From assembly GCA_049517335.1 (NCBI GenBank), contig JBEKSD010000009.1:1-52888 (forward strand): DNA of 52,888 nt, written 5' to 3'. Source of the DNA: Candidatus Omnitrophota bacterium. GTDB taxonomy: Bacteria; Omnitrophota; Gorgyraeia; Gygaellales; Profunditerraquicolaceae. Below, one piece after another: positions 4,855 to 24,694 of the stretch (the first letter of the stretch is position 1; each line of letters starts with the position of its first letter). A model generated the notes under the pieces. That model had not been told where the DNA came from. It saw only the letters and a program-made list of their open reading frames with translations, and did no database searches. The translations under genes were made by a program, and so were the position numbers.

Positions 4855-4882
4855 TTGACAACATCCGGGTTTTTGTTAAAAT
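4855..4882 (+). promoter_or_regulatory. sigma70-type promoter of the hydrogenase operon
   Basis: TTGACA-16 nt-TAAAAT with an extended TGn -10. Confidence 0.7.
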
Positions 4883-4905
4883 ACTACCCATTAATGTACT
4901 AGTAA

Positions 4906-4949
4906 GAGACATAGAAGTCTTCTAGCAGCACTACTAGGAGGCTTTTTTT
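4906..4949 (+). promoter_or_regulatory. ANTAR-type attenuator in the hydrogenase leader
   Basis: Hexaloop hairpin AGAC-ATAGAA-GTCT (loop A1/G4) overlaps the 5' arm of terminator AAGTCTTCTAG...CTAGGAGGCTT plus T-run. The terminator 3' arm contains the SD AGGAGG. Confidence 0.65.
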
Positions 4950-4950
4950 A

Positions 4951-6402: not shown

Positions 6403-8237
6403 TGTTTCCGATAATCCTTTTACCTATATTAATACCTTTAACAGCTGCGCTAACAGTTATATTTTTACCGAAGAATTCCCGCAGCTTTCAAGGCTCGCTA
6501 ACATTCGTTGCCGCAGCCTTTAATTTCGTTCTCACAGCGAAACTGTTTAATAAGGAGCTACTTTTTAACCTTCCCTGGCTGGGAAAGGGAATGGATTTCT
6601 CCTTACGCCTCTATCAATTCAGCGGTTTTATTATGCTCTCCGCCGGATTCTTCGCGTTATTAATCTCGCTTTATTCTTTGAGTTTCCTGCGCGATAAAAA
6701 TTACGCCAAGCATTTTTACGCTTATTTTTTAGTTACGCTTGCCTTTGTCAACGGCGCTTTGCTTTCCGATAACCTTATCCTCTTGTTGTTCTTCTGGGAA
6801 GGGTTATTGCTGACTTTGTTCGGAATGATCGCTATTACGAAGCCTGAAAGTTTTAAGACTGCTACAAAGGCATTTATAATCGTAGGCATTACCGACCTTT
6901 GCTTAATGTCCGGCATTGCTCTAGCGTGGTTTCTTTCCGGCACTTTAACTATTTCAAAAATCCACCTTTCCTCCGGTTCACTCGCCAGCCTTGCTTTTAT
7001 ATTTTTAATTATAGGTGCAATATCCAAAGCAGGTTCAATGCCGTTTCACAGCTGGATCCCCGATGCTGCGGATGATGCATCTCTTCCTTTTATGGCCTTC
7101 CTGCCTGCGGCAGTAGAAAAATTACTTGGCATTTATTTTCTGACCAGGATAACGCTAGACATGTTTGCCCTCAAGCCCGGCTCATGGCTGAGCCCGCTAT
7201 TGATGATTATCGGCTCGCTTACGATTATTCTGGCGGTAATGATGGCCTTGGTGCAGAAAGAGTACAAACGCCTGCTTTCATATCACGCCATCAGCCAGGT
7301 CGGCTACATGATTTTAGGCATAGGCACCTGTGTGCCTGTGGGGATTATCGGCGGCTTGTTCCATATGGTCAATAATGCGCTGTATAAATCCTGCTTATTC
7401 CTTACCGGCGGTTCGGTTGAAAAACAAACCGGCACTACGGACTTGGAAAATTTAGGCGGGCTACGCTTAAAGATGCCGGTAACCTGCGCCTGTTTTATTA
7501 TTACTGCGTTAGCCATTTCCGGGGTGCCGCCTTTTAACGGATTCTTTTCCAAGGAGCTTGTTTATGAGGGTGCCCTGGAGAGGGGCAAGATTTTTTACCT
7601 GGCGGCAATATTAGGGTCATTTTTTACCGCGGCATCATTCCTGAAATTAGGGCATGCCGCGTTTTTCGGAAAGATAAGAGAAGAGCACAAAAAGACAAAA
7701 GAGGCACCTTTAGCAATCCTTATTCCCATGATTGTAATAGCCCTCACCTGTATAATCTTCGGGCTCTTTAATTACATCCCTATTAGAGGTTTCATCCAGC
7801 CGGTGTTGGGAGAAAGGTTGGAAGGCCATAACTTTTCCGGATTTCCAGCCAATATAATGCTTACTATAGCTACGGTTTTAGTTTTACTGGCAGCGCTTAT
7901 CCATCATTTGCTTGCAGTTAAGATTAAGGGGAGTGCTTTAAAGGCAGCTGACCATATCCGTTATGCCCCTATGCTTGGCGCTATCTATGACGCAGCAAAG
8001 AAAAGGTTTTTTGACCCTTACGAGATCTGGCTTAAAATATCAACAGTTATCGCAAAATTTTCTTTCCGGATTGACCGCGGTATTGACTGGGTTTATGAAA
8101 GTTTTAGCGTAGGCCTTGCTAGCATTGCTTCAATGAAAATAAGGAAGCTGCACGATGGCTCTTACGCGAGATATATAAGCTGGGCATTTTTGGGCCTGAT
8201 TTTAGTTATTATTTTCTTCTTTAAGGGAATAAAATGA
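6399..8237 (+). CDS. Group 4 hydrogenase antiporter-like membrane subunit (NuoL-like, long)
   Basis: FFWEG, KAGSMPFHSWIPDA, YKRLLSYHAISQVGY, GVPPFNGFFSK, and a C-terminal lateral-helix region ending LHDGSYARY. Confidence 0.88.
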   Translation: MMFPIILLPILIPLTAALTVIFLPKNSRSFQGSLTFVAAAFNFVLTAKLFNKELLFNLPWLGKGMDFSLRLYQFSGFIMLSAGFFALLISLYSLSFLRDKNYAKHFYAYFLVTLAFVNGALLSDNLILLLFFWEGLLLTLFGMIAITKPESFKTATKAFIIVGITDLCLMSGIALAWFLSGTLTISKIHLSSGSLASLAFIFLIIGAISKAGSMPFHSWIPDAADDASLPFMAFLPAAVEKLLGIYFLTRITLDMFALKPGSWLSPLLMIIGSLTIILAVMMALVQKEYKRLLSYHAISQVGYMILGIGTCVPVGIIGGLFHMVNNALYKSCLFLTGGSVEKQTGTTDLENLGGLRLKMPVTCACFIITALAISGVPPFNGFFSKELVYEGALERGKIFYLAAILGSFFTAASFLKLGHAAFFGKIREEHKKTKEAPLAILIPMIVIALTCIIFGLFNYIPIRGFIQPVLGERLEGHNFSGFPANIMLTIATVLVLLAALIHHLLAVKIKGSALKAADHIRYAPMLGAIYDAAKKRFFDPYEIWLKISTVIAKFSFRIDRGIDWVYESFSVGLASIASMKIRKLHDGSYARYISWAFLGLILVIIFFFKGIK

Positions 8238-9598
8238 CGTCTTTACTTGTATTAGTGCCTTTTTTTAGCCTTATTGTTTTAAACTTCCCCTTTAAGGGCT
8301 TAATGCGTACCTTTGCCTTTTTTTGGGCGGCTTTATTGTCGCTTGCGCAAATTGCTTTGACCGTTTTTCATCCGGCGTGGTTTTGGGAAGGTAGAGCGGA
8401 TAATCTTTCTTCTGTTATGTTCCTTTCCATAGGCATAGTGGTTTTTATATCTTTGTTCGTTGCCCGCGCTCTTATAACAGATGAGGCGCAAAGGGCAAAT
8501 TTCGTAAATTTACTCTTTGTAGCGCTTATCGGAATGAACGCGACGGTTATGGTCACTGATATTTTCTCTCTCTATGTTTTCATAGAGATTACGGCGGTTT
8601 CCTCTTTCGTAATGATCGCCTTACAGAAAGACAGGCTGGCTCTGGAAGGAGCTTTTAAATATTTTATCATGTCCGCGGTAGCCACAGCGATGATCTTGAG
8701 CGCCATTGCCCTGATGTTCTTCGTATCTGGCTCTACCTCTTTTTCCGCAGTTTCCGCAGGCCTGATCAATTCCGCAGGAAGCGGCTTAACCCGTACGGCA
8801 ATTGCTTTATTTATCTGCGGCCTGCTGATTAAATCGGGGATTGTGCCTTTTCATGGCTGGCTGCCGGATGCGTATTCTGCAGCCCCTACCCCGGTTTCGG
8901 TGCTTTTGGCGGGGATTATTACCAAAGCCTCTGGAGTTTACGTGCTTATGCGCCTGGTAATTTCGGTTTTCGGCATAATACCTTCTCTGCAGAACCTTTT
9001 AATGTTTAGCGGCGCTTTATCAATTATTGTCGGAGCGCTAGCTGCTTTAACGCAAAGCGATTTTAAGAGAATGCTTGCTTATTCAAGCATCAGCCAGATT
9101 GGTTACATTATACTGGCTTTGGGTTGCGGAACTCCGCTTGCGCTATTCGGTGCGGCATTCCATATTTTTAACCATGCGACATTTAAATCCTTACTTTTTG
9201 TAAACGCGGCTGCAGTTGAGAAACAATTAGGCACGTTGGATATGGATAAGATGGGTGGACTTTCTGCAAAAATGCCGGTCACCGGAACAACTTCCGTCAT
9301 CGCGGCCCTTTCTACTGCGGGCATTCCTCCTCTATCGGGATTTTGGAGCAAGTTAATCATTATCCTCGCTTTATGGAATGCAGGAAATTTCATCTATGCG
9401 ACGGTTGCGCTCTTGGCAAGCATTCTCACCCTGGCGTATTTCTTGACCCTACAGCGTAAGGTTTTCTTCGGTAAATTAGCCAAGGGTCTGGAGAACGTAG
9501 AAGAAGCGGACTTAAATCTGGTTATTCCGCAGCTGATATTGGCTGTTTTAATAATAGGAGTAGGGTTAATATTCCCCTTTATTTTTGTATGGCATTAG
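8234..9598 (+). CDS. Group 4 hydrogenase antiporter-like membrane subunit (NuoN/MrpD-like)
   Basis: LYVFIEI, ALEGAFKY, KSGIVPFHGWLPDAYSAAP, FKRMLAYSSISQIG. Confidence 0.88.
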   Translation: MTSLLVLVPFFSLIVLNFPFKGLMRTFAFFWAALLSLAQIALTVFHPAWFWEGRADNLSSVMFLSIGIVVFISLFVARALITDEAQRANFVNLLFVALIGMNATVMVTDIFSLYVFIEITAVSSFVMIALQKDRLALEGAFKYFIMSAVATAMILSAIALMFFVSGSTSFSAVSAGLINSAGSGLTRTAIALFICGLLIKSGIVPFHGWLPDAYSAAPTPVSVLLAGIITKASGVYVLMRLVISVFGIIPSLQNLLMFSGALSIIVGALAALTQSDFKRMLAYSSISQIGYIILALGCGTPLALFGAAFHIFNHATFKSLLFVNAAAVEKQLGTLDMDKMGGLSAKMPVTGTTSVIAALSTAGIPPLSGFWSKLIIILALWNAGNFIYATVALLASILTLAYFLTLQRKVFFGKLAKGLENVEEADLNLVIPQLILAVLIIGVGLIFPFIFVWH

Positions 9599-10077
9599 AT
9601 TTAATCCTCTTAATTGTTTTACTAATAGCCGCGCTTTGGACGGTAATGACAACAAGGCTGATTAGGGCGGTGGTGGGGCTGGCATTAACCAGCGCTATAC
9701 TTTCTATCATCATCTTCAGATTGAATTCTCCACTTGCCGCAGTCTTTGAGCTTTCTGTCTGCGCCGGCCTTATCCCGGTTATCTTTATTACTACCATCAG
9801 TTTTACTGAGCGCGTCAACAAAGAACGTTTCGCTTCGCTTAGGATTGAGAGGTTCGGGAAATACTGGTTACTGCCGGTAATTATAGTAATCTGCGCTATT
9901 GCGCTTTCCCTGGTTAAGTTTAGAATAAATTTTAACGTGCCCCGGGCAATAATTGATACGGATGCGCGCAATATCATCTGGTATTTAAGGCATATGGATT
10001 TATTGGGGCAGGTGTTAATACTCTTGGCAGGAGCTTTTGCCGTGGTCGTATTATTCAAGGAGCCTTTAAAAAAATGA
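9589..10077 (+). CDS. Hydrogenase membrane subunit (NuoJ-like)
   Basis: Five hydrophobic segments, LAAVFELSVCAGLIPV motif, operon position. Confidence 0.75.
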   Translation: MALDLILLIVLLIAALWTVMTTRLIRAVVGLALTSAILSIIIFRLNSPLAAVFELSVCAGLIPVIFITTISFTERVNKERFASLRIERFGKYWLLPVIIVICAIALSLVKFRINFNVPRAIIDTDARNIIWYLRHMDLLGQVLILLAGAFAVVVLFKEPLKK

Positions 10078-10394
10078 GTTTTGATCTAGCGGGAATTTTT
10101 TGGCTTTTTAGTATTTTTGTCATTCTGCTTGGTATCGCAGGCGCCTATTGTATTCTGGTAACCTTTAATTTAATCCGTGCACTCCTGGGTCTTGAGCTGC
10201 TGATCAAAGCGGCAACACTTTTAATAATCCTCGCAGGTTATCTGACGCACTCCACCGGCCTTGCGCAGGCGCTTGTCGTTACTTTAATCGTTATTGAAGT
10301 TGTGGTCATGGTTGTAGCAGGCGGGATTATCTTAAGTTTATTTCGGCATTATAAAACAATAGATGCAAGGAAACTTACGCAGTTAAAAGGATAA
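10074..10394 (+). CDS. Hydrogenase membrane subunit (NuoK/MrpC-like)
   Basis: NLIRALLGLELL, LIVIEVVV, C-terminal TIDARKLTQLKG. Confidence 0.85.
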   Translation: MSFDLAGIFWLFSIFVILLGIAGAYCILVTFNLIRALLGLELLIKAATLLIILAGYLTHSTGLAQALVVTLIVIEVVVMVVAGGIILSLFRHYKTIDARKLTQLKG

Positions 10395-10400
10395 GTTAAT

Positions 10401-10736
10401 ATGCAAGGCACACAATTATTGATACCGCCGGTAGCATTTATAGTGGTCCTCTTGGCGCTCGTTATCTTAAGCCGCATTTTTTCTTTTTTAGCTTTTAAGA
10501 AGAAACAGTCCGAAGAGTCCGGGGAGTCATACGCCTGCGGAGAGGATTTTCAGGAGCATGTGGTGCAGCCGGATTACAGCCAGTTTTTTCCTTTTGCTTA
10601 TTTCTTTACGATATTACACGTGGTCGTTCTGGTGATTGCTACTATCCCGGAAGTAAATATCCCGATATTTAGCGCAGCGCTTATTTACATACTGGGAGCG
10701 GTGTTAGGACTTATTACACTTTTAAGGAGGCAGTAA
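10401..10736 (+). CDS. Hydrogenase membrane subunit (NuoA-like)
   Basis: Three TM segments with the ESYACGE loop (compare NuoA YECG). Confidence 0.75.
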   Translation: MQGTQLLIPPVAFIVVLLALVILSRIFSFLAFKKKQSEESGESYACGEDFQEHVVQPDYSQFFPFAYFFTILHVVVLVIATIPEVNIPIFSAALIYILGAVLGLITLLRRQ

Positions 10737-10744
10737 GCTTAAAA

Positions 10745-11191
10745 ATGGGAGTAGTTAAAAGAATAGTCAATTGGGCGCGGCTTAAGTCGCCGTGGGTGCT
10801 GCATTTTAATACCGGGGCCTGCAATGCCTGCGATATAGAAATAGTCGCATCCTTAACGCCAAGGTACGATATAGAGCGTTTCGGCGCAGTGCTTAAAGGC
10901 ACTCCCCGCCATGCGGATATACTTTTATGCTCCGGGCCGGTGACCAAGCAGATTGAATGCCGTTTAAAGAGGGTCTATGAGCAGATGGCTGAGCCGAAAT
11001 TCGTAGTGGCGATAGGTACCTGCGCCTGCAGTGGAGGAGTTTTTAACGGCTGTTATAATGTAAAGGCGGGTATCAATTCGGTAATCCCTGTTTCAGCTTA
11101 TATCCCGGGATGTCCGGCTAGCCCTAAGGCGCTAATTGACGGCGTGGTTAAATTATTAAAGAGCTTGGAAGAAAGCGATGCAAAAAAATAG
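10745..11191 (+). CDS. [NiFe]-hydrogenase group 4 small subunit (NuoB/EchC-like)
   Basis: GACNACDIE, PRHADIL, AIGTCACSGG, YIPGCP. Confidence 0.92.
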   Translation: MGVVKRIVNWARLKSPWVLHFNTGACNACDIEIVASLTPRYDIERFGAVLKGTPRHADILLCSGPVTKQIECRLKRVYEQMAEPKFVVAIGTCACSGGVFNGCYNVKAGINSVIPVSAYIPGCPASPKALIDGVVKLLKSLEESDAKK

Positions 11192-11193
11192 AG

Positions 11194-11652
11194 GTGCTTA
11201 TGCTGGAAGAAAATATTAAACAGGAATTGGAAAAAAAATTCGGCTCTTTAAAGGATAAGATAACTATTCAGAGGCCACGAAGGATTTTTGTTGAGGCGCT
11301 TCAGGCTGATTTTTTTGAAATACTTGATTATCTGGTGAAAGAGATGGGCTTTTCTGCGCTATCGGCAATTACCGGCATGGATGAAGGCGCAACCTTCGGC
11401 GTTATTTACCATTTAAACAGGCAGGGAAGCATAATTTTAAATTTAAGGATTCATCTTACAAGAGAAAACCTTAAGATAAAGACAGTAACCGGCTATTTTT
11501 TGGAAGCAGATGCTTACGAAAGAGAGCTTGAAGATTTATTAGGGATTAAGGTTGAAGGTCTTGCCCCCGGCCACAGGTACCCGCTTCCGGATAACTGGCC
11601 GCAAGGAGAACATCCTTTACGTAAAGACTGGAAGGAGAGCCCGCATGCATAA
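11194..11652 (+). CDS. Hydrogenase subunit (NuoC/EchD-like)
   Basis: LSAITGMD, ADAYERELEDLLGI, HPLRKDW. Confidence 0.88.
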   Translation: MLMLEENIKQELEKKFGSLKDKITIQRPRRIFVEALQADFFEILDYLVKEMGFSALSAITGMDEGATFGVIYHLNRQGSIILNLRIHLTRENLKIKTVTGYFLEADAYERELEDLLGIKVEGLAPGHRYPLPDNWPQGEHPLRKDWKESPHA

Positions 11653-12874
11653 TTCAGGAGATGTAACAGTTCCTTTTGGCCCGCAGCATCCGGCGTTAAA
11701 AGAGCCGGAGAGTTTTTTAATCACGCTGCGCGGAGAGAAGATTACCGCAGCATCGGTGAGAATCGGCTATAACCACCGCGGCATAGAGAAGGCCTGCGAA
11801 GAAAGAACCTATATTCAGGATTTGTACCTTATTGAGAGAATATGTGGCATATGTTCGCATTCGCACTCAACCGCATTTGTGCAGGCAGTTGAGGAAATCG
11901 CTCAATTAGCCGTACCCAGGCGCGCATTGTATATCCGCACCCTGATAGCGGAGCTGGAAAGGGTGCACAGCCATTTATTGTGGTTGGGTGTTGCCGGGCA
12001 TGAGATCGGGTTTGACACTTTGCTTATGTACACCTGGCGCGACCGCGAAGCGGTAATGGATGTTTTAAGCATCTTAACCGGAAACCGCGTCAACTACGGT
12101 ATTAATACTATCGGAGGCGTACGCCGAGATATCAACAAGGAGCAGATTGATGAGGTATTAAAAGCAGTTGCTTTACTTGAAGAGAGGACCAAATATTATA
12201 TCCAGATCGGGACAGAAGAGACGACAATCGTCAAGAGGCTTTCGGGCGTAGGCATACTTTCTAAGGAGGACGCCTTAAAGTTGGGCGCGGTCGGCCCCAC
12301 TGCGCGCGCTTCTAGCATTAAACGCGATGTGCGTAAGGATGACCCCTATGCTGCGTATGCAGAGCTGGATTTTGAAGTAATCGTTGATGATAAATGCGAC
12401 GTTTACGGCAGGACGATTGTGCGCTTAAAAGAACTGCTGCAGTCGTATAATCTGGTGCGCCAGATTCTAAAACAACTTCCCGAAGGCCCTATTACAATCA
12501 AGGCACCGCGCAAGATTCCCGCGGGTGAAGCAGTCAGCCGCTATGAGGCGCCGCGCGGAGAGGATATGCATTATGTGCGCGCCAACGGCACAGACAAGCC
12601 GGACAGGGTCAAGGTCAGGCCGCCTACTTTGGCTAATGTTCAGGCAGTCTCAAAAATGCTTGAAGACAGGTACTTGGCGGATATGCCCATCGTGATTGCG
12701 GCAATTGATCCCTGTTTTTCCTGCACGGACAGGCTGATTTCAATTAAAGAGGCAAAAGCCAAGAAGACAAGAATTATCCCCTGGGAAATCCTGCACATTC
12801 AAAGCATTGAGTGGCATAAAAGCAGGGGAATAGATTTTTCAGGTTTGAACAAACGATTAGCGGAAAAATTCTAA
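11645..12874 (+). CDS. [NiFe]-hydrogenase group 4 large (catalytic) subunit
   Basis: From ATG 11645: FGPQHP, L1 motif ERICGICSHSH and L2 motif DPCFSCTDR (all four Ni-ligating Cys present), plus a cleavable C-terminal extension. Confidence 0.93.
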   Translation: MHNSGDVTVPFGPQHPALKEPESFLITLRGEKITAASVRIGYNHRGIEKACEERTYIQDLYLIERICGICSHSHSTAFVQAVEEIAQLAVPRRALYIRTLIAELERVHSHLLWLGVAGHEIGFDTLLMYTWRDREAVMDVLSILTGNRVNYGINTIGGVRRDINKEQIDEVLKAVALLEERTKYYIQIGTEETTIVKRLSGVGILSKEDALKLGAVGPTARASSIKRDVRKDDPYAAYAELDFEVIVDDKCDVYGRTIVRLKELLQSYNLVRQILKQLPEGPITIKAPRKIPAGEAVSRYEAPRGEDMHYVRANGTDKPDRVKVRPPTLANVQAVSKMLEDRYLADMPIVIAAIDPCFSCTDRLISIKEAKAKKTRIIPWEILHIQSIEWHKSRGIDFSGLNKRLAEKF

Positions 12875-12875
12875 T

Positions 12876-13814
12876 ATGGCAAAAGCATTGTTTAATATCC
12901 TGGTTTTCCCGGGCCTATCTTTTCTTTTTGTCTTCGCTTTGGCGGCAGAGTTTATTGACCGCAAGATAAGTGCCCGCCTGCAAAACAGGGTCGGCCCGCC
13001 GTGGTTCCAGCCGCTGGCTGATTTTATAAAGCTTTTAGCTAAAGAAGATATTCTGCCCAGAGAAGCCGATAAGGCGGTATTTAAACTGATGCCCGTTATT
13101 GCCTTAACGGCAACAGTCACTGCTTTCTTCTATATCCCGCTCTTTACGAAAGAGGCGTTATTTTATTTTAAAGGGGATGTGATCGTGGTCCTCTATTTAT
13201 TAACCATTCCTACCTTAACCTTTTTTCTCGGCGGATGGTATTCAAGGTCAGTTTATTCCATGCTCGGCGCAGTGCGCGCGCTTATCCAGCTATTTGCTTA
13301 TGAAGTGCCTTTGTTTATGAGCATACTCGCCGCAGCTCTGCTTGCCAACACCTGGTCGCTTACTGAGATGGTCCGCTTTTACTCATTACGCCCCTGGTTT
13401 TGGTGCTTAAACCTTATTGGTTTCGCGGTGGCTTTAGTCTCTTTGCTGGGAAAATTAGAAAGGACGCCGTTTGACATCCCTGAAGCGGAAACTGAAATTG
13501 TCGCCGGAGCCTTTACGGAATACAGCGGTAGGCTGCTGGCGTTGTTCAGGCTCGCCGTTAGTATTGAAATGATCGTAGGCGCGTCATTGTTAGTCGCGGT
13601 GTTTTTCCCGTTCTGGCTTGGGGCCGGGCCGGTTTTAGGCTTTATAATTTATTTAGGCAAGATCCTCTTCATAGTCGCATTAATTTCGCTTCTGCGCTCG
13701 GTCCTTGCGCGTTTGAGATTAGACCAGATGATAAATCTCTGCTGGAAGTTCCTTGCGCCCATTGCCCTTATTCAAGTGGTGCTTAATCTGGTTTTAAAGG
13801 GGGTTATACACTGA
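12876..13814 (+). CDS. Hydrogenase membrane subunit (NuoH/EchB-like)
   Basis: DRKISARLQNRVGPPWFQPLADFIKLLAKE, RTPFDIPEAETEIVAGAFTEYSG. Confidence 0.92.
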   Translation: MAKALFNILVFPGLSFLFVFALAAEFIDRKISARLQNRVGPPWFQPLADFIKLLAKEDILPREADKAVFKLMPVIALTATVTAFFYIPLFTKEALFYFKGDVIVVLYLLTIPTLTFFLGGWYSRSVYSMLGAVRALIQLFAYEVPLFMSILAAALLANTWSLTEMVRFYSLRPWFWCLNLIGFAVALVSLLGKLERTPFDIPEAETEIVAGAFTEYSGRLLALFRLAVSIEMIVGASLLVAVFFPFWLGAGPVLGFIIYLGKILFIVALISLLRSVLARLRLDQMINLCWKFLAPIALIQVVLNLVLKGVIH

Positions 13815-13815
13815 T

Positions 13816-14193
13816 ATGAAAAGGCCGGGGAAAATGATAAAAGAGATGCTGGAAAGTTTCCTGAAGAAGCCGGCTACCTTGAATTATCCTGCTGAGAAGT
13901 ATCCTATGCCTAAGGGTTTTCGCGGAAAGCTTAAGTTTAATCCCTCTGCATGCATAGGCTGCCTTATGTGTATGAAGGACTGCCCTACGGGCGCAATAAA
14001 GATAAATAAGGTAGGCGATAAGAAATTTGAATGCGAAATTGACTTGAGTAAATGTATTTACTGCGCGCAATGCGTGGATTCCTGCCCTAGAAAAGCCCTC
14101 GCCATAACCGATGAATATGAGCTCGCAAAGCTGGATACTAAATCACTCAAAATAGTTTATCATGCAGAACCTGAAAAACCTGCTGAAAAGTAA
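13816..14193 (+). CDS. 2x[4Fe-4S] ferredoxin-like subunit (NuoI/EchF-like)
   Basis: TLNYP...FRG, CIGCLMCMKDCP and CIYCAQCVDSCP. Confidence 0.92.
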   Translation: MKRPGKMIKEMLESFLKKPATLNYPAEKYPMPKGFRGKLKFNPSACIGCLMCMKDCPTGAIKINKVGDKKFECEIDLSKCIYCAQCVDSCPRKALAITDEYELAKLDTKSLKIVYHAEPEKPAEK

Positions 14194-14659
14194 ATTAAAT
14201 AAAGCAGAAAGGATTGCTCTTCTGGGGGTCGGCTCTGAATTCAGGGGCGATGATCTGGCCGGGATGCTTGTAGCAAAGAAGCTTGCCGCAAGAATTAAAA
14301 GCCGCAAATTTAAGGTATTTTTAGGCTCTACCGCTCCGGAAAACCTTACCGGCGAAATCAGGAAATTTAAACCCACCCATTTATTGATTGTTGATGCCGC
14401 GGACATAGGAAAAAAGGGAGGCTCCGTGACTATCTTGTGCGCCAAGGAGATAGCTGGGGCGACATTCTCTACGCACCGCCTGCCCGTGAAGTTAATTGCG
14501 GATTATCTTTCCTGCTCCATTGCCTGTGATACAATAGTTTTAGGCGTTCATCCGCAATCATTCGCATTCGGCAAAGAGCCTTCGCTAAAAATTAAAAAAG
14601 CGGTTAAGGATCTTTCGCAAATATTAGAAGAGGTGATATGTATTTCTCTCCAGATATGA
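14162..14659 (+). CDS. hycI: Hydrogenase maturation endopeptidase (HycI-like)
   Basis: LGVGSEFRGDDLAG, APEN, LIVDAAD, STHRLP. Confidence 0.88.
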   Translation: MQNLKNLLKSKLNKAERIALLGVGSEFRGDDLAGMLVAKKLAARIKSRKFKVFLGSTAPENLTGEIRKFKPTHLLIVDAADIGKKGGSVTILCAKEIAGATFSTHRLPVKLIADYLSCSIACDTIVLGVHPQSFAFGKEPSLKIKKAVKDLSQILEEVICISLQI

Positions 14660-15228
14660 CGGATTTGATATACGGCTTAAAGGACTTCGGCGTTTTTGTG
14701 GCGATGTTCCTCGAGTCGAGTGTTCTGCCTATACCTTCCGAGGTTATTATAATCGGGGCAGGTGCAATAGGGGTCTCTATTTTTTCTATAGTATTTTTTG
14801 GCACTCTGGGCTCTACGCTTGGCGCTATGCTCGGTTATGCTTTAGGTAGGTACGCAGCGATGCCCCTGGTGCTGAAGTTTGGTAAGTTCATACTAATTAA
14901 GCCCCACCATATCTATAAAGCAGAACAGTTTGCCAAGAAACACGGTACACGAAGCGTTTTAATCGGTAGGATCCTGCCGGTAGTCCCTTTTAAGGTATTC
15001 TCAATTGCCGCAGGCATTACGAAAATCCCATTTATACCTTTTGTGTTCTTTACTTTAGCAGGGGTAATACCAAGGATCATTATCTTAGTGGTTTTCGGTA
15101 TATCTATAGTAAAATACACCAAGCCTGTATTCTTGCTTATTGCATGCGCCATTGTTATATTCCTTGGCGTTAAGCTCACGGTTAAACTTTCAGCAAAAAA
15201 CAAGAAACAGCGCTTGACAAAGAAGTAA
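14638..15228 (+). CDS. DedA/VTT family membrane protein
   Basis: FLESSVLPIPSEVII, GAMLGYALGRY, LIGRILPVV. An alternative start at ATG 14656 overlaps the hycI stop. Confidence 0.88.
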   Translation: MYFSPDMTDLIYGLKDFGVFVAMFLESSVLPIPSEVIIIGAGAIGVSIFSIVFFGTLGSTLGAMLGYALGRYAAMPLVLKFGKFILIKPHHIYKAEQFAKKHGTRSVLIGRILPVVPFKVFSIAAGITKIPFIPFVFFTLAGVIPRIIILVVFGISIVKYTKPVFLLIACAIVIFLGVKLTVKLSAKNKKQRLTKK

Positions 15229-15241
15229 TTTGTGTTATATT
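15214..15241 (+). promoter_or_regulatory. sigma70-type promoter of the alternative sigma factor gene
   Basis: TTGACA-16 nt-TATATT with TGn extension. Confidence 0.7.
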
Positions 15242-15256
15242 TATATTGTAACTGGT

Positions 15257-15377
15257 AAGACGAAGATGTCTTCTAAGGCAAGCAGGTCGCTGAAGAAGGC
15301 ATTTTTTTTGCCCGCCTAGGGCGGGAAAGGACTAAGGCGTCCTTAATTTTCAAATACGAAAATTGAGGGCGTTTTTT
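15257..15377 (+). promoter_or_regulatory. Tandem ANTAR-type attenuators in the sigma gene leader
   Basis: AAGAC-GAAGAT-GTCTT overlaps terminator 1 (ATGTCTTCT...AGAAGGCAT plus T-run, 15266-15309). AAGGAC-TAAGGC-GTCCTT overlaps terminator 2 (GCGTCCTTAATTTTC-AAATAC-GAAAATTGAGGGCGT plus T-run, 15337-15377). Confidence 0.72.
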
Positions 15378-15447
15378 ATTATCGACACAGTTAGGGAATT
15401 GACCCTAAACAAGATAAGCATTGAATACGGGAGTGGCCTAGGAAGAA

Positions 15448-15972
15448 ATGTCATACGAACAACTGCTAAAAAAAATATCCCCGACCTTGAAGAGGATAAG
15501 CTATAAGTTAAATAAACAGGTTTCTTTTTGCAGTGCGGACGATTTATACCAGGAAGCCCTGATCCATCTTTGGCTTGATTTTTCTGCCGGTAAGTTAGCG
15601 GATAAGACAGATAGCTATATTTTGCAGGGTTGTTACTTTTATTTAAAGAACCATATACGTAAGAATAACGATAAAGTAAGGCTAATCAGCATTGACCCTA
15701 TGGATAGCGAAAGGGAAGATACGGCTAGGATTGATGAGATACGCTATCTAAGCTCAGCAGACTCTACTTTTGAAGATACCTATTGTAAAATGTTGATTGA
15801 GCAGATTAATAATAATGGTTTGACAATCCGGGAAAAGCAAGTTTTCAATTTTGCTTTAAAAGGGCTTACGGTAAGAGAAATAGGTGGTAGGTTAGGGATA
15901 TCCCATGTCCGGGTAGTTAAACTTCGCCGTTCAATTGCGGAGAAATGCTTAAAACACATTGATAAAATATGA
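15448..15972 (+). CDS. Alternative (ECF-like) sigma70-family RNA polymerase sigma factor
   Basis: 174 aa with only region 2 (SADDLYQEALIHLW) and a region 4 HTH (LTIREKQVF...GLTVREIGGRLGISHVRV). No adjacent anti-sigma gene. Confidence 0.85.
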   Translation: MSYEQLLKKISPTLKRISYKLNKQVSFCSADDLYQEALIHLWLDFSAGKLADKTDSYILQGCYFYLKNHIRKNNDKVRLISIDPMDSEREDTARIDEIRYLSSADSTFEDTYCKMLIEQINNNGLTIREKQVFNFALKGLTVREIGGRLGISHVRVVKLRRSIAEKCLKHIDKI

Positions 15973-16009
15973 AATTAGGGACGAGTAACTAAAGAAACGT
16001 CTCTAATTT
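15972..16009 (+). terminator. Hairpin closing the sigma gene transcript
   Basis: 12-bp stem AAATTAGGGACG / CGTCTCTAATTT directly after the stop codon and directly before promoter motif copy 1. The U-tail is weak. Confidence 0.5.
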
Positions 16010-16012
16010 GTG

Positions 16013-16042
16013 GTTACCAAAAATAAGGTATTTTTACTTGTA
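16013..16042 (+). promoter_or_regulatory. Conserved bipartite promoter motif, copy 1 (GTTACCA-N16-ACTTGTA)
   Basis: GTTACCA-AAAATAAGGTATTTTT-ACTTGTA. Both 7-mers and the spacing are identical in 4 intergenic regions. Confidence 0.85.
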
Positions 16043-16062
16043 CTAATGTAAGAGAAGTTCAA

Positions 16063-16200
16063 ACACATTGCTGTGTAAGCAGTAATACAATGGCGTTCCT
16101 TAAAAGAGTAAGTAAGGAACGCTTTTATTTTTTTAAGTCTTTTTAAGACGCAGACGTCTTTTGTATCCCATTGATGGGGATGAAAAGGCGTCTTTTTTTT
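16063..16200 (+). promoter_or_regulatory. ANTAR dual-hairpin leader with two terminators (permease-PII operon)
   Basis: P1 ACAC-ATTGCT-GTGT. P2 AC-AATGGC-GT overlaps terminator GGCGTTCCTTA...TAAGGAACGCT plus T-rich tail. A third hexaloop, AAGAC-GCAGAC-GTCTT, overlaps a second terminator (16152-16200). Confidence 0.8.
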
Positions 16201-16229
16201 GTGAATTAAATTACGAGGGAGGCTTAAAG

Positions 16230-18098
16230 ATGGCTCAAAATCAGAATGATTCTTCTCTAGTAAAACCAAAACTTGGTTTGTTGGGCGCTGCGATGAACGC
16301 CATGGCCTTGATTGCCCCAGGTGCTTTTTTGTGGATTACCTTTCAGCTTCAAGCTGCTGCTACAGCGCCAAGTGGTGCTTCCGTTGCAAGCGATCTCTGG
16401 GCAGGAATTGCGCTTGCTTTGGCTGTCTGTTTCTTAACCGCATTATCCTATTCGGAACTGGCAAAAATTTATCCTGAGGCAGGTTTTGCCAGCTGCACCT
16501 ATTTTGCGGAGAAGGCCTTCTTGGATAGCCGTAAAGAAAAAGTAAGCGGTCCCACTTCAATGGCCCGCGTAGCCAAACTTACTACCGGGTGGGCTGCCCA
16601 TCTTTTTTATTGGGTCTATCCGGGTGTAATGGTAGCCATGATGGCGACGTTAATCGGCTATATTTATAACCAATTTACAGGCCAGTCATTATCACTAACG
16701 AATTTAACTATAATAGGTGTCATATTTACGGTTGTGACCGGATATATTGCCTACCGGGGGGTGACCGGCTCAACCTTAACGGCGATTTGGATTAATATTA
16801 TCCAGTGGGTCACTCTGGTAATTTTTACCAGCCTGGCTATATGGTACCGTATTGCTAACCCCCAACACGTAACGCAGTGGGCTTTTAGCGGGGGCTTGGA
16901 TATTATTAAGATACATTCCTTACAGGGTATTTTGGTTCAGTCTACTATAGCTATTTTGATCCTCGTCGGTTTTGAAAGCTGCACAGCTTTAGCAGCTGAA
17001 ACAAAAGATCCTAAAACAACAATCCCTAAGGCGATTATCATTTCTCTTATTGTCCAGGGGTTGTTTGCTTATTTGTTTGAGTATTTTGGTGCCGGATTTA
17101 TGCTGAGTGAAAAGTTAGTCAATACGACAGGCACGACTACGCTAACCGGCATGGCTGCTGCTGCGGCATCGGGTGCCCCAATTGGAGACCTTGCCAAGTT
17201 GATTGGAGATTCTCTCTTTCATGGCTTGGGATTCGGTTTAATGATTACTATGGCAATTACCGTTGCTATAGCGGTAATCGGAACAACCTTAAGCTGTATG
17301 AATACGGCTATGCGGGTCAGCGCGGGCATGGCCGAGGATCGGGAACTGCCCTCTTCCTTAAGCTTCATACACACTAAGTATATTACGCCACATGTTTCTC
17401 TTGCTACCTTGATCCTGGTTACTTCAGTAATCGGGGCTATTGGTGTGCGTTCCGTTGTAGGGCTGATTGGTATTACGCTTGCCTCAAACCTGGGGACATT
17501 CATACTCTATGGCCTCACTTGTATATGGACTATTGTGGCGTTTAAGGATAGGAAAGATTTCAATGTTTTAAAACACGGCATCATACCTGCTCTGGGCGTT
17601 ATCGCTAACGTTGTTATGACCATAGGTATTTTGTACCTTTATATTATTGGTAACGCTGATGCCAAGTCAGAAGCAAAAATTTGTTTCATGATCGCCGGAG
17701 GGTGGGCACTGATAAGTATTATATATATTGCCGTGACTACCGTACGCAAGACTTATCGTTTGAAGATAGTATCAGGCATGATCCGGCCAGAGCAGCTTAA
17801 TGTTGTTGTGCAGGCCCTTAAAGAAGATGAATGTATCTTAGGTATGACGGTCACAAAAGTAAAAGGATTCGGCAGGCAAAAAGGCCACCTTGATGGGGAG
17901 CCAGCAAGTGACAAGATTACTTTTATCCCCAAGGTAAGAGTTGATGTTGTAGTAAAGGAATGGGACGTTCCCCAGATTATGGATATTATCAGTGAGGCTG
18001 CGCGTACTGGTAATGTAGGTGACGGTAAGATCTTTGTTACGGATGCTTCAGAAGCGATGCGTATCCGCACAGGAGAAACCGGTGTTTGGGCGATATAG
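16230..18098 (+). CDS. APC-family amino acid/amine permease fused to a C-terminal PII domain
   Basis: ATG 16230 after GGAGG. About 12 TM segments with LVGFESCTALAAETKDPKTTIPKA and MAEDRELP. The C-terminal ~110 aa are PII-like (MIRPEQL, GMTVTKVKGFGRQKG, ARTGNVGDGKIFV, RIRTGE). Confidence 0.9.
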   Translation: MAQNQNDSSLVKPKLGLLGAAMNAMALIAPGAFLWITFQLQAAATAPSGASVASDLWAGIALALAVCFLTALSYSELAKIYPEAGFASCTYFAEKAFLDSRKEKVSGPTSMARVAKLTTGWAAHLFYWVYPGVMVAMMATLIGYIYNQFTGQSLSLTNLTIIGVIFTVVTGYIAYRGVTGSTLTAIWINIIQWVTLVIFTSLAIWYRIANPQHVTQWAFSGGLDIIKIHSLQGILVQSTIAILILVGFESCTALAAETKDPKTTIPKAIIISLIVQGLFAYLFEYFGAGFMLSEKLVNTTGTTTLTGMAAAAASGAPIGDLAKLIGDSLFHGLGFGLMITMAITVAIAVIGTTLSCMNTAMRVSAGMAEDRELPSSLSFIHTKYITPHVSLATLILVTSVIGAIGVRSVVGLIGITLASNLGTFILYGLTCIWTIVAFKDRKDFNVLKHGIIPALGVIANVVMTIGILYLYIIGNADAKSEAKICFMIAGGWALISIIYIAVTTVRKTYRLKIVSGMIRPEQLNVVVQALKEDECILGMTVTKVKGFGRQKGHLDGEPASDKITFIPKVRVDVVVKEWDVPQIMDIISEAARTGNVGDGKIFVTDASEAMRIRTGETGVWAI

Positions 18099-19894: not shown

Positions 19895-19911
19895 GGGACC
19901 GTAGGTTAATT

Positions 19912-20091
19912 ATGATAGATAATGAATTAATTAGTAAACTTTTACAATTTAAAGAGGCTGAAGGATATACTCTGCACGATTTATCCAAAAAGCTAGACCT
20001 TCAGGTTACCACTATCGAAAGATGGTTTAAAACTGGGCGCATTAATAAGATTTATGCGCGTATGGTAAAAGAGAAATTACATTTGGATTAG
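19912..20091 (+). CDS. Small XRE/Cro-like helix-turn-helix protein (59 aa, absent from ORF track)
   Basis: Hand translation: MIDNELISKLLQFKEAEGYTLHDLSKKLDLQVTTIERWFKTGRINKIYARMVKEKLHLD. GYTLHDLSKKLDLQVTTIERW fits an XRE HTH pattern. Confidence 0.75.
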   Translation: MIDNELISKLLQFKEAEGYTLHDLSKKLDLQVTTIERWFKTGRINKIYARMVKEKLHLD

Positions 20092-20207
20092 GTAATTTAA
20101 AACAAGATTGAAGGGGGGGATTTTTTGTATTCTTATTTGCACAATTGTCTAATCAAAAGTAGGGATGACCTATTATTAACAGAAACAAAGAAAAGGAGGA
20201 AGTAGAA

Positions 20208-22028: not shown

Positions 22029-22081
22029 ACATTGTTTTATCATATAGGCAGGTGTTTACTGTTGTGAAAGGAGTAATTAAA

Positions 22082-22345
22082 ATGACTGTTCTTGAAACCG
22101 CTAAAATTACCTCAAAAGGCCAGGTTACTATACCCAACCGCATAAGGAAGCTTCTGCGTGTAGAGACAGGCGCCTCTTTAGCCTTTGGTTTAAGCAAGGA
22201 AGGAGTGGTTTTGCTTCCTTGCAAAGTCACCGCAGAATCGCCTTATACTGCTAGTGAATGGGCGAAAATTGAAAAGTTAGCCTCAGCCAAAGGCAAGGCC
22301 TACAAAAGCGCCAAAAGAGCCAAAAAGCATATTGAGGCATTATGA
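22082..22345 (+). CDS. AbrB/MazE/SpoVT-family antitoxin
   Basis: AKITSKGQVTIPNRIRKLL motif. ATG 22082 follows AAAGGAG. Confidence 0.88.
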   Translation: MTVLETAKITSKGQVTIPNRIRKLLRVETGASLAFGLSKEGVVLLPCKVTAESPYTASEWAKIEKLASAKGKAYKSAKRAKKHIEAL

Positions 22346-22620
22346 GATTTGAATTTAAATCTTCCTTTGACCGTTCGCTCAAGAGTTTTTATGGCAGAGA
22401 AAAAGAAGGGATAAAGAAAGTTGCTCTCCAAGCGATAGATATACTCTCTCAGGACCGGATACTCCATAAAAGGATCGGTCTGAAACGTCTTAAAGATGAT
22501 TTCTGGGAGATAAGACACGGTCTTAAGGCAAGGATTCTATTCCGCTGGGAAGGAGATTTAGTGGAATTTATTCTTGCTGGTGACCACAATGATATTAAGC
22601 GTTATCTGAAGAATATTTGA
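22342..22620 (+). CDS. RelE/ParE-superfamily toxin-like protein
   Basis: 92 aa, basic, ATGA-coupled to the antitoxin. F.KSSFDRSLK...LKRLKDDFWEIR...RILF...AGDHNDI pattern. Confidence 0.72.
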   Translation: MRFEFKSSFDRSLKSFYGREKEGIKKVALQAIDILSQDRILHKRIGLKRLKDDFWEIRHGLKARILFRWEGDLVEFILAGDHNDIKRYLKNI

Positions 22621-22678: not shown

Positions 22679-22708
22679 GTTACCAAAAATACCATATTTT
22701 TACTTGTA
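22679..22708 (+). promoter_or_regulatory. Conserved bipartite promoter motif, copy 2
   Basis: GTTACCA-AAAATACCATATTTTT-ACTTGTA upstream of amtB2. Confidence 0.85.
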
Positions 22709-22721
22709 TATATAATTGTAG

Positions 22722-22810
22722 TATAAACACGTTGTCGTGTTTATATGATTAGTAGCCAATGCAGGCGTCCAATACAGCTATAGTTTGTAGTTGTTTATGG
22801 GCGCTTTTTT
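22722..22810 (+). promoter_or_regulatory. ANTAR dual-hairpin leader plus terminator (amtB2-glnK2)
   Basis: P1 TATAAACAC-GTTGTC-GTGTTTATA. P2 GCC-AATGCA-GGC (alternative register AT-GCAGGC-GT) overlaps terminator GGCGTCCA...TGGGCGCT plus T-run. Confidence 0.8.
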
Positions 22811-22882
22811 ATTAACCGAGTTTTGGGATATTTTTTTAACCATTATTTACACAATTGATGAGCCAGTTGTGAAAGAGGAGGG

Positions 22883-24560: not shown

Positions 24561-24590
24561 GTTACCAAAAACAGGGGAATTTTACTTGTA
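24561..24590 (+). promoter_or_regulatory. Conserved bipartite promoter motif, copy 3
   Basis: GTTACCA-AAAACAGGGGAATTTT-ACTTGTA upstream of glnA. Confidence 0.85.
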
Positions 24591-24609: not shown

Positions 24610-24694
24610 GCGTACAAGGTCGCGCTAATTTAAGGAAGAAGAACAGGGGCGTTCATTCAGACGGTAAAAATTGTTAAAATGAACGCTTTTTTTT
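24610..24694 (+). promoter_or_regulatory. ANTAR-type leader plus terminator (glnA)
   Basis: Weak P1 (C-AAGGTC-G). P2 GAAC-AGGGGC-GTTC overlaps terminator GGCGTTCATT...AATGAACGCT plus T-run. Confidence 0.75.

Follow-up and report, generated by a model that had tools for sequence, protein, structure and literature searches.

The closest described counterparts of the locus studied here are leaders controlled by ANTAR proteins. According to the available part of one paper, these proteins target hexaloop mini-hairpins whose loops have A in first place (A1) and G in fourth (G4); the second hairpin overlaps a terminator, and most such sites precede PII, amt, GS, GOGAT, and nif genes (PMC3369931). 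The minimal ANTAR binding unit, as given in the accessible text of a later paper, is one hexaloop, and the sole base-specific contact is with G4; in vivo, EutV needs both hairpins, and 20 added linker bases abolished antitermination (PMC8934654). In the nitrogen-fixation cascade of Geobacter sulfurreducens (RpoN with GnfL/GnfM, and the ANTAR response regulator GnfR), expression of nitrogen genes depends on a specialised sigma-dependent promoter as well as on ANTAR antitermination at leader terminators, and the excerpts of that work place the GnfR site CAGGCAANGGCGCC over the leader terminators of nifH, glnK, and amtB (PMC2995071).

Both the ANTAR attenuation of nitrogen genes and small alternative sigma factors are already known. 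The ECF (group 4) sigma factors consist of sigma2 and sigma4 only, without region 1.1 or 3, and comprise about 170–200 aa. Their promoters are typically of the AAC / CGT type. ECF sigmas of the HrpL type are controlled only through their own transcription, and their activity is set by the amount made. It is also known from tandem riboswitches or attenuators that two serial gates sharpen a response. In the literature searched, which was available in part, no description was found of protein-dependent antitermination of a sigma factor gene, or of a sigma gene that lies behind ANTAR-type terminators and feeds forward into an identically gated regulon.

The window analysed here is a stretch of 52,888 nucleotides from a Candidatus Omnitrophota bacterium (contig JBEKSD010000009.1), and all of the features described below lie on its + strand. 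The open reading frame at 15448–15972, preceded by the ribosome-binding site AGGAAG, encodes a sigma-70-family factor of 174 aa. Profile, structure-model, and structural-match evidence identifies it as an ECF-like sigma factor, as the sequence-only reading of this DNA had claimed, with two domains (sigma2 + sigma4) and without region 1.1 or 3. It matches the NCBIfam model TIGR02937 over its full length (residues 3–170), scoring 53.6 bits where the cutoff is 42.9, and its predicted structure consists of helices at 3–73 and 107–173 joined by a disordered linker at 77–102. The top Foldseek matches of this model are sigma factors, and its structural matches include SigL, SigH, SigE, AlgU, SigK, and SigW. 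The protein differs from the ECF group in that no NCBIfam ECF subfamily model passes and in that, among solved structures, it comes closest in sequence to group-3 factors, namely FliA, SigB-type, and SigF chains, which match both halves of the protein. The models TIGR02985 (28.6 against 126.4) and Sigma_B (27.5 against 315) fail. The nearest homologue is 86% identical, and a region-2-like block, DLYQEAL..LW / SYILQGCYFHLKNYIRK, shows no or almost no variation.

The sigma gene is preceded by a sigma-70-type promoter at 15214–15241 (TTGACA at 15214–19, a 16-nt spacer, and TGnTATATT), which overlaps the stop codon (15226–28) of the upstream DedA/VTT gene. The match covers 11 of 12 consensus positions, plus the TG, and agrees with the earlier claim of a housekeeping-type promoter. 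Five promoter-like sites were found in 14500–16500 against 4.4 expected, and the match in the window, taken alone, is weak evidence; of the 81 sources, 54 have a similar site, TTGAC[AT]-N15-19-TAnnnT, in the 320 nt before sigma.

The leader that starts at this promoter is about 200 nt long and contains two intrinsic terminators, whose U-runs end at 15309 and 15377, respectively. The first, T1 (15266–15309, −12.6 to −13.8 kcal/mol), has a 9-bp outer stem in which 15266–74 pairs with 15294–15302, an inner stem, and U8 at 15302–09. The second, T2 (15337–15377, −19.7 kcal/mol), has a 15-bp stem formed by 15337–51 and 15358–72 and is followed by U6 at 15372–77. A simple terminator scan found T2 (15334–15375, 18 pairs) and missed T1 because the loop of T1 exceeds the size limit of the scan. 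Each terminator has its own alternative hairpin with a six-base loop: P_A (15257–15272, AAGAC-GAAGAU-GUCUU, 5 bp, −3.2 kcal/mol) overlaps T1, and P_B (15327–15344, AAGGAC-UAAGGC-GUCCUU, 6 bp, −6.4 kcal/mol) overlaps T2. The loop of each hexaloop hairpin, together with its 3′ arm, also serves as the 5′ arm of the corresponding terminator, so the hairpin and terminator folds are mutually exclusive. The CCCGC/GCGGG stem that had been proposed as a separator of the two gates is present as a spacer hairpin (CCCGCC-UAG-GGCGGG, 15310–15325, −10.5 kcal/mol); it occupies a variable spacer and is absent beyond the closest loci. The whole leader folds with −66.1 kcal/mol (z = −4.19), and none of 200 shuffles folds as well.

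A generic detector of G4 hexaloops with an overlapping terminator gave 28 hits over the whole window, whereas 20 shuffles averaged 20. This number does not exceed chance, and for the window by itself it is given no weight. The narrower core GAC-NNNGNN-GTC occurs four times in the window against 1.07 expected, with 4 of 100 shuffles also reaching four. All four copies lie on the + strand, directly 5′ of leader terminators.

The main weight of the evidence is the conservation of these modules across relatives. The module detector demanded that the hairpin overlap the 5′ side of a terminator, and with this demand the real leaders stand far above shuffled ones. At least one hairpin/terminator module was found upstream of sigma in 58 of 81 sources, and two or more in 46. 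Counted over 78 leaders, there are 110 modules, with at least one in 57 leaders and two or more in 45; ten rounds of dinucleotide shuffling of these leaders gave totals of only 2–14, and 4 of 72 control segments contained a module. Among the 23 module-less sources, 13 have a module one gene farther away, upstream of the neighbour that precedes sigma, and in 10 of these 13 loci, no more than 8 nt separate the end of this neighbour from the sigma start. The two serial terminators, each with one hexaloop alternative, are present in the sequence as first described, and their arrangement is conserved in the family. At the position of the spacer stem, other loci have nothing or unrelated repeat-like insertions, and the sequence between modules varies freely.

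The upper-stem pairs of T1 vary in a compensatory way across loci in single-sequence folds, which favour pairing. Covariation of the hairpins is weak because their stems are nearly invariant in sequence, and the classification was partly selected on the stems. RNAalifold on one MAFFT module alignment recovered only an invariant 4-bp hairpin and no covariation, with the 3′ terminator arms out of register, as they are in both MAFFT module alignments.

The hexaloops fall into two types. Type A (AGAC-N6-GUCU) is represented by the window and 44 loci and has the loop consensus A-N-W-G-A-N, while type B (GGAC-N6-GUCC) is represented by the window and 46 loci; its loop has UAAGGC as the commonest base at every position, at 36–40 of 47 for positions 1, 2, 3, 5, and 6. 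Without any filter, G4 is present in 105 of 110 GAC-N6-GTC sites upstream of sigma. Both window loops carry G4 and overlap their terminators, as in the published ANTAR targets. This arrangement, in which the 3′ side of a G4 hexaloop hairpin is the 5′ side of a terminator, resembles EutV/eut of Enterococcus faecalis, NasR/nasF, and AmiR/amiE, so far as the accessible descriptions of these systems go. The strong association with nitrogen genes, the presence of an encoded ANTAR protein, and the possibility of several serial terminators per locus are further common points in the available text of the two papers (PMC3369931, PMC8934654). The 3′ half of the GnfR site resembles the AAGGCGUCC present here, and this terminator-overlapping site is likewise similar to NAAGGCGUCC (PMC2995071).

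There are also departures from the dual-hexaloop systems. Loop position 1 in the window is G in P_A and U in P_B rather than A. Across the family, A1 is found in 34 of 45 type A loops and in none of the 47 type B loops, 36 of which have U. No closely spaced tandem hexaloops were found in the window, where 54 nt separate P_A from P_B and each is coupled to a separate terminator, unlike the close pair of the described systems; an upstream hairpin of the recruitment type within 12 nt of type A, seen in 40 of 53 other leaders, is absent in the window. Overall, the hairpins look like ANTAR antiterminator targets rather than parts of a riboswitch.

A candidate for the trans-acting antiterminator is encoded in the same window. 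The gene at 4101–4823 specifies a GAF-ANTAR protein of 240 aa, with GAF_2 at 83.2 bits and ANTAR (PF03861) at 62.5 bits against a cutoff of 27.3. Its ANTAR part matches the solved chains Rv1626, EutV, and NasR, and its GAF part matches NifA-like and PtsP GAF domains; the sensor thus differs from the receiver or NIT domains of the described dual-hexaloop systems, as does the regulated gene, which here is a sigma factor. A homologue of the protein is present in 42 of 80 related loci, in all 42 upstream of sigma on the same strand and in 24 within 450 nt of it. Among the nearest upstream open reading frames of sigma, 21 of 75 combine GAF and ANTAR.

It had been proposed that the attenuators act on this sigma instead of an anti-sigma factor or autoregulation. 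In the window, the gene just downstream of sigma encodes an amino-acid permease-PII fusion, and the claim that no anti-sigma gene can be recognised next to sigma was borne out: none of the 72 downstream neighbours scanned gave a hit to a Pfam anti-sigma domain at E ≤ 1e-12, with 25 being nitrogen-related or other and 47 having no match. Five of the common neighbours of about 265 aa were rescanned at E ≤ 1, which left four without a credible match and one with Gcw_chp, a family of unknown function that we take to be located in the outer membrane. The word “instead” is nevertheless unproven, because an anti-sigma could be trans-encoded. The absence of the GTTACCA motif upstream of sigma was confirmed for the window, and just 1 of 81 sources has GTTACC-N17-19-CTTGT in the 320 nt before sigma. 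In lacking both an adjacent anti-sigma and an autoregulatory promoter, the window sigma differs from the ECF group.

Downstream of sigma, a promoter-like motif, GTTACC-N18-CTTGT, was located by motif search at 16013–16041, in front of the permease-PII operon, with further copies at 22679–22707, 24561–24589, and 28584–28612. It was found in 74 of 80 loci, in every case on the + strand. In 65 of the 80, it begins no more than 400 nt past the sigma stop, and in 54, no more than 20 nt past it. The last figure makes it unlikely that the 12-bp hairpin after the sigma stop codon, which had been noted as a sign of a monocistronic gene, is conserved; the hairpin does exist (15972–16009, −11.5 kcal/mol), though without a U-tail. 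The spacing of the motif is fixed, and the consensus from 117 sites is gGTTACCAgaa-N7-tTtTTTACTTGTA. The downstream genes encode Amt, PII, GS-I, GS-III, NifH, porins, and NadE. The motif is likely the promoter recognised by the sigma factor, and as a promoter, GTTACC / TTTACTTGTA would be unlike the AAC / CGT type. It could also be the site of another regulator, e.g., the Fis-type HTH protein encoded at 28750. Two other readings were rejected by eye: TTTACTTGTAGTAAT taken as a sigma-70 extended −10 has no register with the A2 and T6 of the consensus hexamer, and the motif is neither GG-N10-GC-like nor palindromic, as a sigma-54 or NtcA-type site would be.

The leaders behind these promoters contain the same kind of modules. 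In the permease-PII leader, a first terminator at 16093–16122 is followed by a second attenuator (16145–16200, −21.7 kcal/mol) that comprises AAGAC-GCAGAC-GUCUU, a terminator, and U8. The amtB-2 leader (22722–22810) has a hexaloop hairpin (GUUGUC, 22722–45), a terminator at 22766–22804, and a U-run. In the glnA leader (24641–24694, −17.1 kcal/mol), GAAC-AGGGGC-GUUC overlaps a terminator followed by U8, and in the leader of the Fis-HTH/gltBD operon (28662–28716), GAAC-AAAGGC-GUUC overlaps a terminator followed by U7, with a hairpin GAUAC-AGCGUU-GUAUC farther upstream. Across the relatives, at least one terminator lies within 260 nt after the GTTACC promoter in 105 of 108 cases, and two or more in 63. 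G4 is found in 79 of 105 hexaloops that overlap regulon terminators, against a background of 26%. A hexaloop of any kind is present in the first 75 nt of 110 of 111 regulon leaders, a noisy measure given 78–92 in shuffled sequences; only hexaloops that combine A1 and G4 rise clearly above the shuffles, at 39 against 3–11. Because the leaders of the adjacent nitrogen operons carry the same modules, this control is not private to sigma. The proposal of RNA attenuators as the control of the sigma gene is partly supported: two such terminators with alternative hairpins lie upstream of it, but they are most likely sites of an ANTAR protein rather than self-contained sensors.

The best explanation of the whole, and one that we consider probable from the sequence patterns, is an ANTAR-gated sigma that feeds forward to an ANTAR-gated nitrogen regulon. 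The sigma gene would be transcribed from its constitutive-looking promoter, and by default, transcription would end at the two serial terminators, each of which competes with a far weaker upstream hairpin. When its GAF domain reports the nitrogen status, perhaps through 2-oxoglutarate or glutamine as the ligand, which is a guess, the GAF-ANTAR protein may bind and stabilise the hairpins, so that RNA polymerase reads through both terminators. The sigma factor would then direct RNA polymerase to the GTTACC-N18-CTTGT promoters of the neighbouring nitrogen-assimilation operons, which comprise the permease-PII fusion with a porin, amtB-glnK, glnA, a type III glutamine synthetase, and gltBD. As the leaders of these operons carry the same modules, expression of the regulon would need both sigma and active ANTAR. 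Such a circuit would be a coherent feed-forward loop of the AND type, with a quick shut-off without an anti-sigma.

Other explanations have to be weighed against this ANTAR-gated circuit. The hairpins may be bound by a different trans-acting factor, either another ANTAR paralogue elsewhere in the genome or an unrelated RNA-binding protein, with the synteny of the GAF-ANTAR gene being coincidental in a nitrogen neighbourhood. The departure of loop position 1 from the ANTAR rule would fit such a factor, as would the distance of 10.6 kb between the ANTAR gene and sigma in the window, the 38 of 80 loci without an ANTAR homologue within about 5 kb upstream of sigma, and a neighbourhood that is generally rich in nitrogen genes (nadE, Glu_synthase, GDH). 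We regard this as unlikely, though it is the most serious of the alternatives: every one of the 42 homologues has the same placement and orientation, with 24 immediately adjacent; the six-base loop, G4, and the terminator overlap fit both the ANTAR definition and the GnfR site as far as the available text of those papers describes them; and no other RNA-binding protein family was seen to recur among the neighbours of sigma. The terminators might instead be unregulated insulators or leaky brakes that end the upstream transcript or fix a low level of expression, and the hexaloops would then be incidental. The overlap of the promoter with the end of the upstream gene, the weakness of P_A, and the fact that hexaloop-plus-terminator patterns of the generic kind are not rare in AT-rich DNA speak for such a role. 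It becomes quite improbable in view of the position of the modules downstream of the sigma promoter, where they are kept whatever gene lies upstream (ANTAR, nadE, KdpD, DedA, and others). Additionally, conservation of the hairpin sequences and of G4 goes far beyond what terminator function alone would demand, and shuffles and control segments almost never yield modules.

A self-contained attenuator of the riboswitch kind, with direct sensing of a metabolite or ion as implied by the sequence-only reading, would also account for two terminators with alternative folds in a significantly structured leader. This is very doubtful, since Rfam 15 gave no match at the gathering score over the whole window, and a search at E ≤ 10 over 15150–16300 returned sub-threshold hits only, the best being the PyrR binding site with 27.8 against 54 bits. 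The conserved parts are only hairpins of 14–18 nt without an aptamer-sized core, the sequence between them tolerates insertions, and the same mini-hairpins precede many different operons. It is equally hard to sustain that the open reading frame encodes a small LuxR/GerE-type DNA-binding regulator rather than a sigma factor. GerE is its best Pfam match, with 23.5 bits exactly at the cutoff, and the Pfam models Sigma70_r2, r4, and r4_2 all score under their gathering thresholds. The full-length TIGR02937 match, the nearly invariant region-2-like block, the group-3 profile matches across both halves, and top structural matches that are all sigma factors nevertheless argue for a sigma factor.

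If the ANTAR-gated circuit is real, it would be an example of an alternative sigma controlled without an anti-sigma or autoregulation. In contrast to HrpL-type factors, control would be exerted during transcript elongation, by way of protein-dependent antitermination. Compared with Geobacter, as described in the accessible part of that work, the hierarchy would be reversed: there, the sigma-54 system stands above the ANTAR regulator and activates it, and here, ANTAR-type modules would gate the sigma gene. The sigma factor is also a two-domain protein of 174 aa rather than sigma-54 with an enhancer-binding protein. A broader and more tentative extension, to which we give somewhat less than even credence, is that a two-layer nitrogen circuit without a described counterpart elsewhere might be found throughout the phylum Omnitrophota, in which the minimal sigma factor would recognise GTTACC-N18-CTTGT promoters and a GAF-ANTAR protein would gate both sigma, by way of its two serial terminators, and every sigma-dependent operon. 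Attenuation would then serve as a fast off-switch, and the circuit would replace NtrC/sigma-54 or GlnR/NtcA control. The promoter and leader motifs would provide a regulon map for an uncultivated phylum that could be read from metagenomes and checked in metatranscriptomes, and as the parts are short and modular, they would be easy to test in a heterologous host. One more module of this kind is found at 4855–4950, directly before the hydrogenase operon, where a promoter (TTGACA-17-TAAAAT) is followed by the hairpin GAGAC-AUAGAA-GUCUU (4906–21), a terminator, and U7.

The open reading frame at 15448-15972 (forward strand, 174 residues; window from a Candidatus Omnitrophota genome, G+C 40.6%) has 637 homologues at E<=0.001 among 697 candidates, and those named by their source are called 'sigma-70 family RNA polymerase sigma factor [Candidatus Omnitrophota/Omnitrophica]'. 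Residues 3-170 match the NCBIfam model TIGR02937 (sigma70-ECF), whose cutoff is 42.9, with 53.6 bits. None of the NCBIfam ECF subfamily models passes, and the protein could be assigned to no ECF subgroup among those checked. The Pfam models of regions 2 and 4 stay under their gathering scores, and GerE scores exactly its cutoff. In a 29-sequence alignment, the conserved blocks include DLYQEAL..LW and SYILQGCYFHLKNYIRK, invariant or nearly so, in the region-2-like half, as well as a region-4-like helix-turn-helix. The AlphaFold model (mean pLDDT 78.4) consists of helical domains 3-73 and 107-173 with a disordered linker between them. When it is searched against the PDB with Foldseek, every top match is a sigma factor, of ECF type or group 3; the TM-scores are low (0.3-0.37), as expected when a flexible linker joins two domains. 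A sequence-profile comparison puts FliA (1.7e-7), a SigB-type factor and SigF closest among solved chains. Profile, alignment, model and structural matches therefore identify a genuine two-domain sigma factor. Its architecture is ECF-like, and the sequence-only reading had likewise called it an ECF-like sigma.

The leader of this gene follows a promoter on the forward strand (TTGACA at 15214-15219, 16 nt, TGnTATATT to 15241). The small hexaloop hairpin P_A (AAGAC-GAAGAU-GUCUU, 15257-15272, -3.2 kcal/mol) overlaps the intrinsic terminator T1 (15266-15302, -12.6 to -13.8 kcal/mol), which is followed by U8 to 15309. Beyond a spacer stem, CCCGCC/GGCGGG (15311-15325), folding predicts the second hexaloop hairpin, P_B (AAGGAC-UAAGGC-GUCCUU, 15327-15344, -6.4 kcal/mol), and the terminator T2 (15337-15372, -19.7 kcal/mol) with U6 to 15377. 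A further 70 nt lead to the ribosome-binding site AGGAAG and the ATG. The 5' arm of each terminator is the loop and 3' arm of the preceding small hairpin, so the two folds are mutually exclusive. The terminators are far more stable than the competing hexaloop hairpins, and the default state of the leader is thus 'off'. None of 200 shuffles of the leader reaches its degree of structure (z = -4.19). Sequence reading and folding reproduced the earlier description of tandem attenuators nearly base for base. The CCCGC/GCGGG stem that it placed between the terminators does exist in the window, but it is confined to the closest loci; elsewhere there is nothing or a repeat-like insertion.

Taken by itself, the window makes a modest case above chance. 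With a generic detector, 28 matches are obtained against about 20 in shuffles, and the core GAC-NNNGNN-GTC occurs in 4 copies against 1.07 expected, a count reached by 4 of 100 shuffles; all four copies lie on the forward strand, immediately 5' of leader terminators. At the level of sequence, the comparative evidence is decisive. The best 80 of 204 relatives from species-representative genomes were compared with the window. A module was defined as a hexaloop hairpin that has G at loop position 4 (G4) and overlaps a second hairpin ending at a U-run; the 320 nt preceding sigma were searched for it. At least one module was found in 58 of these 81 sources and at least two in 46. In the 78 usable leaders, 110 modules were counted, whereas ten dinucleotide-shuffle rounds gave totals of 2-14; a module is present in only 4 of 72 control segments. 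Two types recur: type A (AGAC-N6-GUCU, loop consensus A-N-W-G-A-N) in the window and 44 loci, and type B (GGAC-N6-GUCC, loop consensus UAAGGC) in the window and 46 loci. With no loop filter applied, G4 is present in 105 of 110 GAC-N6-GTC sites upstream of sigma. The terminator stems vary among loci with pairing kept, as judged by single-sequence folds and unconfirmed by MAFFT and RNAalifold.

Among the 23 module-less sources, 13 have a module upstream of the gene preceding sigma. In 10 of them, this gene, in most cases nadE, has its end no more than 8 nt from the start of sigma, and for this reason the two are probably co-transcribed. Overall, nadE (glutamine-dependent NAD synthetase) immediately precedes sigma in 20 of 75 loci (e.g., L007, L010, L018, L029), the gap often being 1-8 nt. 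In these loci nadE has the modules on its upstream side, which makes it part of the same control unit. In many loci, GC-rich repeat-like hairpins of about 40-50 nt, such as GCCGCAGAAGGCGGCACACCGG...CCGGGTG, are inserted between modules or inside terminator loops (L002, L010, L020, L022, L023, L040, L049, L060, L074). They resemble miniature mobile repeats in behaviour, and the attenuators tolerate them.

The sigma-leader hairpins fit the published description of targets of ANTAR, an RNA-binding antiterminator domain. These targets are described as mini-hairpins with hexanucleotide loops and an essential G at position 4, the terminator-proximal hairpin overlapping the terminator, mostly upstream of PII, ammonium transporter, glutamine/glutamate synthase and nitrogenase genes (PMC3369931). 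Structural work narrowed the minimal binding unit down to one hexaloop, with G4 as the sole base-specific contact (PMC8934654). The Geobacter GnfR site CAGGCAANGGCGCC overlaps leader terminators (PMC2995071), and its 3' half is like the AAGGCGUCC of the leaders described here. The window differs from the canonical motif in two ways: its loops begin with G or U (type B never has A there), and it lacks a pair of hairpins at close spacing. Of 53 other leaders, 40 have a recruitment-type hairpin no more than 12 nt from type A, most commonly with the loop AGCGUU (13 of 40); this hairpin is absent from the window and its closest relatives.

A candidate antiterminator is encoded in the window at 4101-4820 (forward strand) by a gene with ANTAR (62.5 bits, cutoff 27.3) and GAF_2 (83.2 bits) domains. 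Among solved chains, Rv1626, EutV and NasR match its ANTAR part, and its GAF part resembles the GAF domains of NifA-like proteins and PtsP, a likeness that only suggests 2-oxoglutarate or glutamine as the signal. Of the best 80 of 204 loci, 42 encode a homologue upstream of sigma and on its strand, and none was found downstream or on the opposite strand in the 80. The distance is at most 450 nt in 24 of the 42, and 487 nt (one locus) or 1.85-3.7 kb in the rest. Where the ANTAR gene is more distant, the nearest upstream neighbour of sigma is often nadE or a Glu_synthase-domain gene. In L056 (4246-4992), the GAF-ANTAR gene precedes sigma by 8 nt and has a module upstream, so that the predicted antiterminator would gate its own transcript. 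In the window, the gene is directly followed (4855-4950) by a sigma-70-like promoter, a type-A hairpin (GAGAC-AUAGAA-GUCUU), a terminator and U7, and then by a 10-kb Mrp/Mbh-like group-4 NiFe-hydrogenase operon (4951-14659). Since sigma directly follows the ANTAR gene in many relatives, this operon looks as if it had been inserted there and put under the same attenuation control.

The nitrogen cluster downstream of sigma comprises an amino-acid permease-PII fusion, a BBP2 porin and a PII gene; it also contains two amtB-glnK pairs, glnA, a type III glutamine synthetase, and gltB and gltD together with a Fis-type HTH gene. Exact matches to GTTACC-N18-CTTGT head four of its units, all on the forward strand (16013-16041, 22679-22707, 24561-24589, 28584-28612). 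The exact matches number four in all, and the relaxed matches 19 against 9.4 expected. The motif is found in 74 of the best 80 of 204 loci, on the sigma strand without exception; its start is no more than 400 nt from the stop codon of sigma in 65 loci, and no more than 20 nt from it in 54. Its consensus over 117 sites is gGTTACCAgaa-N7-tTtTTTACTTGTA.ta.tgtaag. Because its spacing and orientation are fixed and it is tightly linked to the sigma gene, a sigma-dependent promoter is the likely reading. A DNA-binding regulator could use such a motif as well.

Genes behind this likely promoter include, among the 72 immediate downstream neighbours, Amt (9), PII (7, and one more as a permease fusion), BBP2 porin (4), NifH (1) and NadE (1); a protein of about 265 aa without a Pfam family is also frequent. 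Amt, GS-I and GS-III lie behind more distant sites. Among 108 GTTACC promoters with enough sequence, 105 have at least one terminator within 260 nt, 63 have at least two, and in 78 a hexaloop hairpin overlaps the 5' arm of a terminator. The loop consensus in these leaders is RNAGGC, and 79 of 105 have G4, where the background is 26%. In L025 (1215-2039), the gene after sigma is nifH, preceded by the same promoter and a leader with two modules, which brings nitrogenase into the regulon of some lineages.

In the proposed mechanism, the sigma promoter would fire constitutively and most transcripts would end at T1 and T2. Active GAF-ANTAR protein would hold P_A and then P_B, polymerase would clear both terminators, and two gates in series would multiply the on/off ratio. 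Sigma would then initiate at GTTACC promoters, whose leaders would require the same protein; loss of the signal would therefore stop the regulon at once, even with sigma persisting. ANTAR regulons of nitrogen genes are already known, as is the pairing of sigma-54 with an ANTAR regulator in Geobacter. A literature search that included parts of a 2025 review (PMC12591593) and few subscription journals found neither a sigma gene behind ANTAR-type terminators nor the Omnitrophota sigma/GTTACC-promoter pair.

Several smaller features accompany these loci. In L002 (113-4702), a 1530-aa ORF with SpvB, TcdB-middle, FG-GAP and RHS-repeat domains lies upstream of the sigma leader and seems unrelated to the sigma-attenuator finding. 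The permease-PII fusion of the window (16221-18098) joins AA_permease_2 to a C-terminal PII domain (Pfam P-II, 73.9 bits) and recurs in at least one related locus (L028, 5725-7596). A small ORF between PII and the first amtB (19911-20091) contains a stray GTTACCA, and this amtB is without the full promoter motif and leader terminator present before the second copy. The stretch from glnK to the promoter of the second amtB contains two small ORFs that overlap (22073-22620) and resemble, by eye, an AbrB/SpoVT-type antitoxin and a RelE/ParE-like toxin. Finally, TTATTTRCACAATTG occurs between the leader terminator and the amtB genes' ribosome-binding site (20125-20150 and 22838-22870) and in the leaders of L033, L035, L041 and L048. 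In several loci it is contained in an inverted repeat (ACACAATTGA..TCAATTGTGT), and it may be a further amtB-specific operator or RNA hairpin.
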